Virus record (IMG/VR): IMGVR_UViG_2537562195_000005
Length of the DNA: 44,529 nt
Source: a virus
Lineage: Duplodnaviria; Heunggongvirae; Uroviricota; Caudoviricetes
Reading direction: 5' to 3' (one strand)
Position 1 is the first letter of the stretch. Each line of letters begins with the position of its first letter. This document shows positions 36,001-39,000 of this stretch, one piece after another. The position numbers are program-made.

Positions 36001-39000
36001 ATTTTTTCTGCAATGAGCTGAATGAAAAAGGGGGGCCGGTGACCTGGCAGGGGCGTGAATATCAGGCGTACCCGATTGAGGGCAGCGGCTTTGAGATGAA
36101 CGGAAAGGGCAGCAGTGCCCGCCCGTCGCTGACGGTGTCCAATCTGTTTGGCCTTGTCACCGGGATGGCGGAGGATTTGCAGAGCCTGGTGGGTGCCACG
36201 GTGGTCCGCCGCCGGGTGTATGCGCGTTTTCTGGATGCGGTGAACTTTGTGGCAGGCAATCCTGAGGCAGACCCGGAGCAGGAGCTGACGGACCGCTGGG
36301 TGGTGGAGCAGATGTCAGCGCTGACGACCATGACGGCCTCGTTTGTGCTGGCGACACCGACGGAGACGGACGGTGCGCTGTTTCCCGGTCGCATCATGCT
36401 GGCGAACACCTGTATGTGGGATTACCGGGGCGATGAATGCGGGTATAACGGTCCGGCAGTGGCGGATGAGTTCGACAACCCCACCACGGATATCCGGAAG
36501 GACAGATGCAGTAAATGCATGCGCGGGTGTGAGATGCGCAGCATGGTGGCTAATTTCGGCGGTTTCCTTTCCATTAATAAACTTTCGCAGTAAATCCCGT
36601 TTTATGACACAGACTGAATCAGCGATTCTGGCGCATGCCCGGCGGTGTGCGCCAGCGGAGTCGTGCGGCTTCGTGATAAGCACCCCGGAGGGCGAACGGT
36701 ACCAGCCCTGCGTGAATATCTCTGCAGAGCCGGAGGCGTATTTTCGTATTGCACCGGAAGACTGGCTGCAGGCACAGATGCAGGGGGAGATTGTGGCGCT
36801 GGTCCACAGTCATCCCGGTGGTCTGCCCTGGCTGAGCGAGGCGGACCGGCGGCTGCAGATAAAGAGTGCCCTGCCCTGGTGGCTGGTCTGCCGGGGTGAC
36901 ATTCACCGGTTCCGCTGTGTGCCGCACCTGACCGGACGGCGCTTTGAACACGGTGTGACGGACTGTTACACCCTGTTCCGGGATGCATACCATCTGGCGG
37001 GGATAACGCTGCCGGATTTTGTGCGTGAGGATGACTGGTGGCGCAACGGTCAGAACCTGTACCTGGACAACCTGGCGGAAAACGGCTTTTACCGGGTGTC
37101 TCCGTCCTGTGCACAGGCAGGCGATATCCTGCTGTGCTGCTTTGGCGCATCGGTGCCGAATCATGCCGCCATTTACTGTGGCAACGGTGACCTGCTTCAC
37201 CATATACCTGAACAACTGAGTAAACGGGAGAGGTATTCTGAAAAATGGCAACGACGAACGCATTCTGTCTGGCGTCACCGCCACTGGTCCGCATCTGCCT
37301 TCACGGGGATTTACAACGATTTGGTCGCCGCATCAGTCTGTATGTGAACACGGCAGCGGAGGCCATCCGTGCCCTGTCGCAGCAGGTGCCGGGATTCCGC
37401 TGTCAGATGAACGAAGGCTGGTACCAGATACGTATTGCCGGTGAGGATACCGCGCCGGAGGCGGTGTATGCCCGTCTTCATGAACCGCTGAGCGGGAGGG
37501 CCGTGATTCATATTGTACCGAGGCTGGCAGGGGCCGGGGGAAATGGTGTTTTTCAGGTGGTGCTGGGGGTTGCAGCGATTGTCGGGTCATTTTTCACTGG
37601 TGGTGCAACACTGGCGGCATGGGGCGCAGCCCTGAGTGCCGGAGGGCTGACTGCCACCACGATGCTGTTCTCACTGGGTGCCAGCATGATACTGGGTGGT
37701 GTGGCTCAGATGCTGGCCCCGAAGGCAAAGACGCCGGAGTACAAAAGCACGGATAACGGCAGACAGAACACGTATTTTTCGTCACTGGACAACATGATTG
37801 CCCAGGGTAACCCGATGCCGGTGCCTTACGGTGAAATGCTGGTTGGTTCACGACGGATATCCCAGGACATCAGCACCCGTGATGAGGGCGGTGACGGGAA
37901 AGTGGTGGTTATCGGGCGGGGATGAAAATAAAAAAAATCCCGCAGTGCTCTGTAGCTGCGGGAAGAGATACGAAGATTAACTTTAAGGAATTTTTCATTA
38001 TTCTGGCAGATGAACTGTAACGCAGCGTGATTATGAGCACTACAGTCAGTGTGCGGAAATGTGAATAAACTCAGAATTTTTATTCACGGGAAGGGAGGGG
38101 CCGGATATCGGTGGCAGAGGACAGAAGGCATCATGCCGGGTTCAGGGGATAAAAAAATCCCGCAGTACTCCGTGCTGCGGGAAGAGAACGATGTTGACTA
38201 ACCTGTTGGCGTTTTATTTTTATTGACCCGCAGAAACTGTAACCTGCCGGAATGCACTCTGCCACGGAGAATGACGGAAAATGTGAAGAAAATCAGAGTT
38301 TTTATTTATCCCGTACATTCGTCTCTGGCGACAGAGTGGCGTCAGTAATGTCCGTGATACTGAGGGGGGAATTAAAAAATCTCCCGTAATACACCTGGAT
38401 ATTGACGGGAGAAACGAATAGTCACCTTAAGGAGTAGTTTTGATTATTGCCTGTAATCAGCGGGCGAATTGTAACGTATGGTGATTATGAGTGCCACAGG
38501 TAATTTGCAGAAATGTGAATAAATTCAGAATTTTTATTCACAGGAAGGGGGTGCGGGATATCGGTGGCAGAGGACAGAAAATATCAGGCCGGGTTTAAGG
38601 GATAAAAAAATCCCGCAGAGTCAGCGGAGCTGCGGGAGAGAACGATGAAGATTAACGTTATGGAGTTATTTTTCAGGCATCAAAAAAGTAACGCAGCGTC
38701 ATTATTGCGGCTACAGGCAATTTGCAGAAATGTGAAGAATTTCAGAAATTTTATTCCGTCATGACACAGGCACCCTCCGGGGTGCCTGTTGTTTTTGGGC
38801 ATAAACAGATTCAGACATCAGACATCAGACATCAGACATCAGACAGGAGAGGGGGACAGAGTGGGTAAAGGGGGTGGCAAGGGGCACACACCGCGTGAGG
38901 CGAAGGACAATCTCAAATCCACGCAGATGATGAGCGTGATTGACGCCATTGGTGAGGGACCGGTGGAAGGCCCGGTGAAGGGACTGCAGAGTATTCTGGT

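Follow-up and report, generated by a model that had tools for sequence, protein, structure and literature searches.

A known relative of the locus analysed here is PasB (pathogenicity-associated sRNA B) of EPEC O127:H6 E2348/69, an 83-nt, Hfq-dependent RNA that is down by log2 6.8 and 2.4 in a delta-hfq strain and has 37 RIL-seq interactions in EPEC (PMC8550237). It is annotated at NC_011601.1 1466343..1466261, minus strand. This site is the gap between tail genes I and J of prophage PP6 (I end 1466255, J start 1466496), and the mapped 3' end of the RNA lies within a U-run. A survey of the Pas sRNAs reported no copies in tandem, the closest pair of pasB genes being 28,355 bp apart (doi 10.64898/2026.05.13.724894), and neither a promoter, a CRP site nor an array is discussed in the PasB papers (PMC8550237; doi 10.64898/2026.05.13.724894). 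Hfq-CRAC peaks named EcOnc22, EcOnc23 and EcOnc24 were located in Sp15, Sp14 and Sp11 of EHEC O157:H7 Sakai (PMC4104026, Table S2). EcOnc22 is ~85 nt long on Northern blots and destabilised without hfq (PMC4104026). All three peaks map to I-J gaps, on the strand opposite the tail genes. The 2014 coordinates are offset from the current Sakai record by about +128 to +144 bp, as judged from AgvB1, and we therefore infer that the CRAC peak sits on the PasB homologue rather than elsewhere in the gap. Position, strand, size and sequence suggest that EcOnc22 is the equivalent of PasB, a link made in neither paper (PMC4104026; PMC8550237).

Other systems share parts of this arrangement. AgvB and AsxR, anti-sRNAs encoded downstream of PR', and HnrS (EcOnc10-12) are likewise short Hfq-binding RNAs at conserved 'moron' positions of lambdoid prophages, with several copies per genome in EHEC/EPEC, but their sequences and slots are unrelated and their copies stem from multiple prophages, not from tandem arrays. 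HnrS, which is multicopy and prophage-borne, was rejected as the identity of the locus since it maps between lysis and terminase genes; AgvB and AsxR were rejected on the grounds of a different slot (AgvB lies near Q/PR') and unrelated sequence. OmrA/OmrB, PrrF1/PrrF2 and Qrr1-5 are adjacent or multicopy sRNA paralogues under a shared regulator, an arrangement that provides dosage and partly distinct target sets. Like the units described below, they combine shared promoter logic and conserved modules with differences elsewhere. However, they are host core genes and mostly pairs, whereas the locus described here has four copies on the antisense strand of a phage late operon, with unit types shuffled between prophages. 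The phage-borne Cu,Zn superoxide dismutase genes sodC-F1/F2 (PMC2569942) are antisense cargo of the very same I-J gap, although they are protein-coding and absent from the 44.5-kb stretch of viral DNA analysed here (the window; 44,529 nt). In about 10 of 80 related phage contigs, an antisense sodC and a PasB-like remnant occupy this gap together. The presence of antisense sodC makes the gap a general slot for antisense cargo.

In the window, the I-J gap spans 935 bp (37926-38860) and contains no conserved ORF according to the ORF list. The sequence-only reading had recognised that non-coding DNA separates the two genes, but its figure of ~875 bp was too small, and by ending the array at 38800 it omitted a heptad repeat and the ribosome-binding site of J. 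The fixed landmarks around the array are:

37245..37925, plus strand: tail assembly gene I, 226 aa (ORF list)
38766..38799, plus strand: intrinsic-terminator-like hairpin ACAGGCACCC-TCCG-GGGTGCCTGT, then TGTTTTTGGG (terminator scan)
38811..38845, plus strand: heptad repeat (TCAGACA)x5 (Tandem Repeats Finder; period 7, 5 copies, 100% match)
38861..41869, plus strand: J, host-specificity/tail-tip gene, GTG start (ORF list)

RefSeq relatives of the two genes are annotated as 'tail assembly protein' and gpJ, respectively. The plus-strand hairpin (10 pairs, 7 of them G-C in the terminator scan) lies just upstream of J and forms the boundary of the array on that side. Most related gaps contain it too, and one compensatory change (CACC/GGTG to CATC/GATG) is seen among them. 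The heptad repeat is located between this hairpin and the Shine-Dalgarno sequence of J and varies from 0 to 5 copies across relatives.

A repeat search of the gap revealed four head-to-tail units with spacings of 222, 232 and 217 bp; additional repeat families with a period of 453-454 bp indicate a two-unit super-period. Pairwise identity among the four units is 64-74%, which is why Tandem Repeats Finder missed the 220-bp units and returned the heptad repeat and two short chance arrays. A whole-unit profile built from 32 single-copy relatives, all from outside the window, gave exactly four matches in the 44.5-kb window, all on the minus strand, with E-values of 3e-45, 8e-34, 6e-26 and 5e-17, far beyond chance. 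The tandem array of four degenerate units noticed in the sequence is thus borne out. A blastn search with PasB as the query found only unit 4 (E = 4e-15) and missed units 1-3. Covariance models of Rfam 15, which has no PasB model, gave nothing in the gap at gathering thresholds and only chance-level matches at E <= 10 (Arrc14, 20.5 bits versus a cut-off of 99). A full-text literature search for the RNA or probe sequences found no paper.

Alignment of the units to the PasB ends, folding and pattern searches yielded the following elements of each predicted gene:

37930..38008, minus strand: unit 1 predicted sRNA, 79 nt, seed region AAUUCCUUAAAGUUAAUCUUCG (alignment to mapped PasB ends)
37938-37963, minus strand: unit 1 terminator hairpin, then U8 (fold)
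38014..38019, minus strand: unit 1 candidate -10 element, TACAGT (alignment column)
38060..38075, minus strand: unit 1 CRP-like box, TCTGAGTTTATTCACA (pattern search)
38151..38230, minus strand: unit 2 predicted sRNA, 80 nt, seed region AACGCCAACAGGUUAGUCAACAUCG (alignment to PasB ends)
38158-38182, minus strand: unit 2 terminator hairpin, then U7 (fold)
38236..38241, minus strand: unit 2 candidate -10 element, TACAGT (alignment column)
38282..38297, minus strand: unit 2 CRP-like box, TCTGATTTTCTTCACA (pattern search)
38374..38462, minus strand: unit 3 predicted sRNA, 89 nt, seed region ACUCCUUAAGGUGACUAUUCG (alignment to PasB ends)
38380-38412, minus strand: unit 3 long terminator hairpin, then U6 (fold)
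38468..38473, minus strand: unit 3 candidate -10 element, TACAAT (promoter scan, GTGGCA-18-TACAAT, and alignment column)
38514..38529, minus strand: unit 3 CRP-like box, TCTGAATTTATTCACA (pattern search)
38604..38679, minus strand: unit 4 predicted sRNA, 76 nt, seed region AACUCCAUAACGUUAAUCUUCAUCG (alignment to PasB ends)
38611-38637, minus strand: unit 4 terminator hairpin, then U7 (fold; part flagged by the terminator scan)
38685..38690, minus strand: unit 4 candidate -10 element, TACTTT (alignment column)
38731..38746, minus strand: unit 4 CRP-like box, TCTGAAATTCTTCACA (pattern search)

The four minus-strand units lie between the end of I (37925) and the start of J (38861), the same slot and strand as PasB, and the U-run of the unit 1 sRNA ends 4 nt from the stop codon of I, similar to the 3' end of PasB, which is also a few nt from that codon. 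Singleton-only sRNA profiles recovered unit 1 (E = 7.5e-17), unit 2 (E = 2.6e-11) and unit 4 (E = 7e-22), which are 75%, 66% and 76% identical to PasB, respectively. Unit 3 is the most divergent copy (59% identity to PasB) and reached E = 5e-17 with the whole-unit singleton profile versus just 0.11 with the sRNA-only profile; it is therefore assigned to the family mainly by where it lies and by its promoter region. The RNA of unit 4 matches the Sakai Sp15 copy at 99% identity and, judged by sequence, is the orthologue of EcOnc22. While PasB is present as one gene per prophage and EcOnc22-24 as one copy per prophage, with targets listed as unknown (PMC4104026), the window holds four paralogues that are 59-76% identical to PasB.

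The predicted full-length RNAs fold with -15.1 to -18.2 kcal/mol, each with a terminal hairpin at its end, and in each unit this hairpin is followed by U6-U8, forming a rho-independent terminator as in the PasB family. The PasB probe AATCCCGCAGTGATCGCGGAGCT matches a terminator in the window. With a predicted length of ~80 nt (76-89 nt), the same terminator, an Hfq-type 3' end and the same promoter-region motifs, the units resemble PasB. The U-tail, an A-rich ARN-like stretch and a single-stranded body are compatible with Hfq binding. In every RNA there is also an anti-Shine-Dalgarno motif, CUCC, next to a segment of 4-6 nt that varies, as well as a conserved GUUAAUCUUC block. The region proposed as the PasB seed is the conserved block immediately preceding the terminator.

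These results support the earlier proposal of an array of minus-strand sRNA genes, given the homology to PasB and EcOnc22-24 and the shared gap, strand and terminator, and they revise several of its details. A plus-strand A-run does precede all four hairpins and reads on the minus strand as a hairpin followed by a U-run, as proposed. The cccgcag...ctgcggg stem assigned to every unit is confined to units 1, 2 and 4, where the loops measure 10, 9 and 11 nt instead of 8 nt, while unit 3 has a different and longer stem, tctcccgtaata...tattgacgggaga. The supposedly conserved gtaacgcagcg block is exact in units 1 and 4 only, and just GTAAC is common to all four. Transcripts of 150-220 nt had been expected; the predicted RNAs are about 76-89 nt long, and the remainder of each unit is promoter and spacer. 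The term 'antisense' is true of their position, yet the PasB family is known as trans-acting and Hfq-bound.

For the anatomy of the family, 96 units (52 distinct) from 85 related loci were compared. The motif TCTGA-N6-TCACA is present in all four units of the window and in 52/52 distinct units; in the window, the box pattern has 4 matches, all within the array, versus 0.13 expected. It coincides with a 9-bp inverted repeat, gtgaataaa/tttattcac, that had been described as part of each unit but is perfect in units 1 and 3 only. The repeat was consequently rejected as a hairpin or operator feature of the family; what the four units have in common at this site is TGTGA-N6-TCAGA (plus-strand reading). 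CRP binds 22-bp sites close to AAATGTGATCTAGATCACATTT, with the core TGTGA-N6-TCACA. Together with a trailing TTT, the box agrees with 9 of 10 CRP core positions, judged against the consensus and not a scored matrix, and one half-site departs from it (TCTGA instead of TGTGA). The box and its flanks show 94-99% column identity versus 65-72% elsewhere in the unit. A TAnnnT element is found at the same alignment column in 52/52 distinct units. The box centre lies 48.5 nt upstream of it, a spacing identical in 49/52 units although the intervening sequence is just 72% conserved.

The published PasB 5' end is 6 nt past the TAnnnT element, placing the box centre at -59.5 to -60.5. In class I CRP-dependent promoters, the site has its centre near -61.5 or lies farther upstream by one or more turns of the helix. 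In most units a second -10-like box (TATAAT, CATAAT or AATAAT) is found ~15 nt upstream, but this ATAAT box is missing from unit 2. If it were the true element, the RNAs would be ~15 nt longer and the CRP-like box would lie near -44.5, a non-canonical activating position. For the unit type found in Sakai, the two alternatives predict RNAs of 76 and 91 nt, and the Northern size of ~85 nt is intermediate. Exact start sites of the unit RNAs are accordingly given as predictions, and the box makes CRP a candidate regulator. The sole, indirect hint of cAMP-dependent activation is that PasB levels are higher under the non-activating than under the activating condition (PMC8550237).

Among the fetched loci, clusters of 1, 2, 3 and 4 units were found at least 129, 13, 4 and 4 times, respectively, i.e. 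most related prophages have a single unit and some have 2, 3 or 4. IMG/VR exact-pattern matches to the box mix true and chance hits and served only as extra loci for the profile scan. A terminal hairpin (-10.9 to -18.2 kcal/mol) and then a U-run close every sampled unit; the stems fall into two classes. RNAalifold returned no consensus structure for 25 sRNAs because the two terminator classes misalign, and hairpins were tabulated per sequence instead. There are about 20 seed region variants across the units, and the four units of the window have four different ones. The full array is present at 97-100% identity in 67/5426 complete E. coli genomes; among the matches listed, it is without annotation and its carriers include O91:H21, O104:H21 and O178:H19. 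Strains with the array are, for example, FWSEC0008 (O91:H21; NZ_CP031906.1 4500785-4501719), EH41 (O113:H21) and 2012C-4431 (O178:H19). A separate contig scan with protein I returned 4 loci, 3 of which, probably contaminants, are Escherichia phage DNA from assemblies assigned to Streptomyces, Parendozoicomonas and Clostridiales.

The gap probably contains a tandem array of four paralogous PasB/EcOnc22-24 sRNA genes on the minus strand, opposite the tail operon. The sRNA family is known, but its arrangement as several paralogues in tandem is new in that no description of it was found in the searchable papers. Homology, anatomy, distribution and conservation pattern are directly observed in the window and its relatives, whereas expression, size and Hfq dependence have been shown by others for single-copy homologues only, with Northern blots and RNA-seq as evidence for a discrete RNA of ~80 nt. 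Transcription of units 1-3, control by CRP, the precise start sites and any targets are inferred.

It is conceivable, though rather unlikely, that the RNAs act mainly in cis on the phage late transcript. Through RNase III cleavage or transcriptional interference, four duplexes of 76-89 bp, or four promoters firing head-on, could then reduce J expression or set its timing in lytic growth; a trans role could coexist. The I-J spacer of the tail operon mRNA can pair with each RNA without a mismatch. The units sit within the late operon, encoded on its other strand and 4-6 nt from the stop codon of I, and all relatives examined share the slot. The plus-strand terminator-like hairpin and the variable heptad repeat between the array and J fit as well. 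However, the detection of PasB and EcOnc22 comes from lysogens, whose late operon is silent, and both RNAs are Hfq-bound with many trans partners. The RNAs overlap neither the coding sequence of I nor the ribosome-binding site of J. That the seed is where divergence is concentrated fits diversification of trans targets and disfavours a cis role, in which an antisense RNA would match its own locus perfectly whatever its sequence.

We consider it unlikely that only the J-proximal unit 4 works and that units 1-3 are duplicates decaying after unequal inter-prophage recombination, leaving the array as such without function. Unit 4 is identical to a single-copy relative while the nearest single- or two- to three-unit relatives of units 1-3 are only 78-80% identical; in addition, the RNA body of unit 3 is very divergent and unit 2 has no upstream ATAAT box. 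Decay is nevertheless hard to reconcile with the fact that, at 26-36% divergence, all four units keep the box, the exact spacing and TAnnnT together with the A-rich leader, the pyrimidine-rich anti-Shine-Dalgarno core and a stable terminator with its U-run. The same preservation of promoter, spacing and terminator speaks against the recombination scar and the known mobile element that had also been entertained. Moreover, the same unit types recur in other combinations within two- and three-unit arrays, and the entire array is highly conserved in its 67 carrier genomes. Units 1-3 could still be silent, in which case the finding reduces to a known sRNA gene and three decaying copies.

A role at the DNA level, with repeated sites for CRP or another protein serving as a regulator sink, nucleoid-structuring element or recombination hotspot and the RNAs being incidental, appears highly improbable. 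The 16-bp box with its flanks is indeed the most conserved part of the unit, but it stands at a fixed distance from a -10 element, followed by a terminated RNA that others have detected, and four sites are too few for CRP titration. Type I toxin-antitoxin repeats (Sib/Ibs or Ldr/Rdl type) or copies of a small mobile element can practically be dismissed: tandem ~220-bp sRNA-encoding repeats do resemble SIB and LDR repeats and unit 4 and E2348/69 both have a short ORF (MKINV...) on the plus strand across from the RNA, but its ATG is present only in units 2 and 4 (ACG and AAT in units 1 and 3) and also replaced in many other distinct units, so that small ORFs were rejected for lack of a conserved start codon, no reading frame is maintained, the peptide is non-hydrophobic, and the units have neither terminal inverted repeats nor target duplications and occupy the I-J slot in one orientation at every locus inspected in detail.

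We hypothesize that each of the four PasB-type units is an autonomous gene with a weak sigma-70 promoter, comprising the TAnnnT -10 element and the CRP-like box ~60 nt upstream of the start. The resulting RNA of 76-89 nt would be mostly single-stranded and carry an A-rich (ARN-like) stretch and the CUCC anti-Shine-Dalgarno motif; its G+C-rich hairpin with 6-8 U would act both as terminator and as Hfq-binding 3' end. In a lysogen, the four RNAs may associate with Hfq and target mRNAs of the host and of prophages in trans by base pairing. Their target sets would overlap without being identical, because the segment adjacent to the anti-Shine-Dalgarno motif differs in all four. The shared box could subject all units to one common signal, with cAMP-CRP as the likeliest regulator and high expression expected without glucose. 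The array may have originated by recombination between PasB variants of different lambdoid prophages, in a slot that tolerates antisense cargo.

More tentatively, and possible rather than probable, the I-J gap could be a cassette site for regulatory RNAs in which PasB-type promoter and seed modules are shuffled between co-resident prophages and stacked up to four. If so, certain Shiga-toxin-producing lineages would have a co-regulated, probably catabolite-controlled battery of Hfq sRNAs with differing targets, and this array of tandem sRNA paralogues would have no described precedent in phage genomes; the BLAST search on which the existing survey relied misses three of its four members.

In pathogenic E. 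coli, the carriage of phages is increasingly being connected to host metabolism and virulence through prophage-encoded Hfq sRNAs (AgvB, AsxR, StxS, HnrS and the Pas RNAs). According to the only survey, tandem duplication does not occur among Pas genes, while here arrays of 2-4 diverged paralogues with differing seed-adjacent sequences are found. Because such arrays occur, the sRNA repertoire of array-carrying STEC lineages is probably undercounted by BLAST surveys and genome annotation. The invariant CRP-like box at a fixed distance provides a regulator hypothesis for the whole family that is unproposed in the searchable papers, and the four paralogues represent a natural experiment on sRNA retargeting by seed changes.

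In the window, the last base of tail gene I is 37925, and tail gene J begins with a GTG codon at 38861. The resulting gap of 935 bp is larger than the ~875 bp given by an earlier sequence-only reading, whose four-unit array between I and J was recovered by repeat search as one family of four copies spaced 222, 232 and 217 bp apart. Further repeat families in the gap recur at 453-454 bp, making U1/U3 and U2/U4 pairs that are more alike in their promoter and spacer parts. With 64-74% mutual identity between functional cores, the four units are too diverged for Tandem Repeats Finder, which did not detect the array in the window. 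On the plus strand, every unit starts with an A-run followed by a hairpin, which on the minus strand reads as hairpin plus U-run. The periodic minus-strand terminators noted earlier are thus present in all four units, and the reported lack of conserved ORFs also holds, no ORF being common to the repeats across the 935 bp. The units, numbered along the plus strand as before, are:

37926-38150, minus strand, U1, predicted sRNA gene, seed region AAUUCCUUAAAGUUAAUCUUC
38151-38373, minus strand, U2, predicted sRNA gene, seed region AACGCCAACAGGUUAGUCAAC
38374-38603, minus strand, U3, predicted sRNA gene, seed region ACUCCUUAAGGUGACUAUUC
38604-~38800, minus strand, U4, predicted sRNA gene, seed region AACUCCAUAACGUUAAUCUUC

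I-J gaps were measured per locus in 80 phage contigs encoding close protein I relatives and in E. coli genome loci, from which 96 units, 52 of them distinct, were extracted. All 52 distinct units carry, on the minus strand, a CRP-like box (TCTGA-N6-TCACA) followed by TTT, and a candidate -10 hexamer (TAnnnT); in 49/52, the distance between the box centre and the upstream edge of the hexamer is 48.5 nt. Column identity is 94-99% in the box versus 72% over the next 36 columns, and the box pattern matches the window four times, exclusively in the array (0.13 expected). Start sites were inferred from an alignment to a single homologue with a mapped start, the Hfq-linked sRNA PasB, whose published 5' end is 6 nt past the hexamer. 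Predicted RNAs measure 75-89 nt over all units, shorter than the ~150-220 nt previously envisaged, and contain an A-rich stretch, a CUCC-type anti-Shine-Dalgarno motif, 4-6 variable nucleotides and GUUAAUCUUC. Every distinct unit ends in a hairpin of -10.9 to -18.2 kcal/mol and a U-run, with two classes of terminator stem (UCCCGCAG/CUGCGGGA and CUCCCGUCAAUA/UAUUACGGGAG). Outside the terminator the predicted RNA bodies fold weakly, as expected for seed-bearing Hfq sRNAs. A profile built solely from 32 single-copy units detects U1-U4 (4/4; E = 3e-45 to 5e-17), while an RNA-only profile yields E values of 7e-22 (U4), 7.5e-17 (U1), 2.6e-11 (U2) and 0.11 (U3).

The box agrees with the CRP consensus at 9/10 core positions, as a consensus match rather than a matrix score. 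Its centre lies at about -60 relative to the mapped PasB start site, which we take to be close to the class I CRP position of the lac promoter. Most units also contain a TATAAT-like box ~15 nt further upstream that, in contrast to the universal TAnnnT, is degenerate in U2 and some other unit types. If this were the true -10, longer RNAs and a non-canonical CRP geometry would follow.

No Rfam family matched in the I-J gap. PasB of EPEC E2348/69 is an 83 nt RNA (NC_011601.1 1466343..1466261, minus strand) with 37 RIL-seq interactions. It depends strongly on Hfq, its level changing by log2 -6.8 and -2.4 in delta-hfq, and its abundance is higher under non-activating than under activating conditions (Pearl Mizrahi et al. 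2021, PMC8550237). Its Northern probe, AATCCCGCAGTGATCGCGGAGCT, is the plus strand of the hairpin found in the window array, and its gene lies in the I-J gap of E2348/69 prophage PP6, opposite the tail genes, its 3' end 6 nt from the I stop codon. In EHEC Sakai, Hfq-crosslinking peaks EcOnc22, 23 and 24 were reported in Sp15, Sp14 and Sp11, EcOnc22 being ~85 nt on Northern blots and destabilised in delta-hfq (Tree et al. 2014, PMC4104026). All three peaks (3/3) map to the I-J gap of their respective prophage and are antisense to the tail genes. Coordinates in Tree et al. 2014 are offset by ~+128 to +144 bp from the current Sakai record, as gauged by the AgvB1 sequence; with the offset applied the peaks lie on the PasB homologue, and without it in the same gap on the same strand. 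Since the predicted U4 RNA differs from the Sp15 copy at one position, we infer that EcOnc22-24 are PasB homologues and that U4 is EcOnc22, an equation made in neither paper. This homology supports the minus-strand small-RNA array proposed earlier.

The PasB family is already known, and the array is therefore not a new kind of element. The only survey of Pas sRNAs describes one Pas gene per prophage as typical, reports that copies do not occur in tandem, the closest two pasB genes being 28,355 bp apart, and does not discuss a promoter or CRP site (doi 10.64898/2026.05.13.724894). Within searchable papers, neither the array nor the additional paralogues nor the conserved CRP-like box had been described, which makes them new observations. 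Arrays were overlooked before because a PasB query retrieves only U4 by blastn and none of the window units by megablast.

The fetched loci together contain 129 single units, 13 two-unit, 4 three-unit and 4 four-unit clusters, and no larger cluster. By megablast, 751 of 5426 complete E. coli genomes match some portion of the gap, 67 carry all four units of the array at 97-100% identity and 114 contain U1-U3-type sequence, in a census that is not exhaustive, since it covers megablast matches and loci with a close relative of a single I protein. Carriers among the matches listed include O91:H21, O178:H19, O104:H21 and many bovine/food STEC isolates, and these matches have no RefSeq annotation within the gap. 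U4 is identical to a single-copy relative, and the nearest relatives of U1-U3 (78-80%) occur singly or in other two- and three-unit combinations. U1 and U3 are 83-88% identical in promoter and spacer versus 65% in their RNAs, with different terminators, which points to module exchange at conserved motifs.

Elsewhere, the I-J gap also holds other antisense cargo. In ~10/80 relatives (L038 2635-3488, L012, L051, L065, L068, L071, L081, L085, L089, L092) it spans 854 bp and contains an antisense Cu,Zn sodC (Pfam Sod_Cu E = 4e-32) that has a terminator of its own, then a PasB-like remnant in which the -10 element and terminator are retained and the CRP-like box is missing. Phage-carried sodC is a known accessory gene (D'Orazio et al. 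2008, PMC2569942). A ~345-bp gap class (L064 3179-3523, L010, L067, L074, L078, L079, L082, L088) comprises one unit plus ~100 extra bp on the J side, where the usual ACAGGCACC hairpin gives way to another one, AAACCCCGGTATC...GATACCGGGGTTT, which has T-runs on each strand. L010, L011 and L012 are short contigs from assemblies labelled Streptomyces flavalbus, Parendozoicomonas haliclonae and a Clostridiales MAG; they encode this Escherichia phage I protein (86-100% identity) and most likely represent contamination.

Directly before J, a plus-strand hairpin (38766-38799; 10 bp, 7 G-C pairs, then TGTTTTTGGG) looks like an intrinsic terminator within the late tail operon. Most relatives retain it, and one compensatory change, CACC/GGTG to CATC/GATG, is seen among them. 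It could keep untimely transcription out of J or act as an insulator for the sRNA promoters. Between it and the J Shine-Dalgarno lies a perfect heptad repeat, (TCAGACA)x5 (38811-38845), whose copy number ranges from 0 to 5 across 85 related gaps (mode 2, the window being the maximum). E. coli megablast matches end at query 899, 906, 913, 920 or 935, in steps of 7, and the repeat, just upstream of the J translation start, behaves like a slippage-prone one. The J frame (38861-41869) encodes ~1003 aa, compared with 1228 aa in a related prophage that has the same array (L096 20936-24622). Behind it lies another ORF of 116 aa (42084-42434), and the J gene of the window may be mosaic or interrupted. 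Further downstream, a 395-aa ORF (43025-44212) has a long collagen-like Gly-X-Y repeat region, its syntenic counterpart (L096 25106-26293) being annotated as a prophage tail fibre N-terminal domain protein. Rfam matches elsewhere in the window are:

8674-8750, plus strand, isrK, adjoining the C4 antisense RNA
8775-8862, plus strand, C4 antisense RNA
15858-16106, plus strand, three tRNA genes
17515-17729, plus strand, STnc100 (159 bits)

The array could also act in cis on the late transcript that spans I and J, which would not conflict with action in trans. We do not favour cis action as the principal function, because lysogens express the homologues in Hfq-bound form and because the units diverge mainly in the seed region. 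That the extra copies are decaying duplicates is disfavoured, since all functional elements and their spacing survive 26-36% divergence. Remnants of a known mobile element, an origin raised in the sequence-only reading, do not fit units found only in the I-J slot and in one orientation at every locus inspected in detail, and toxin-antitoxin repeats are rejected because the start codon of the ORF on the opposite strand is not conserved. The array is best read, from its sequence, as four autonomous, co-regulated sRNA genes whose products would act in trans in an Hfq-dependent manner, with diversified specificity.
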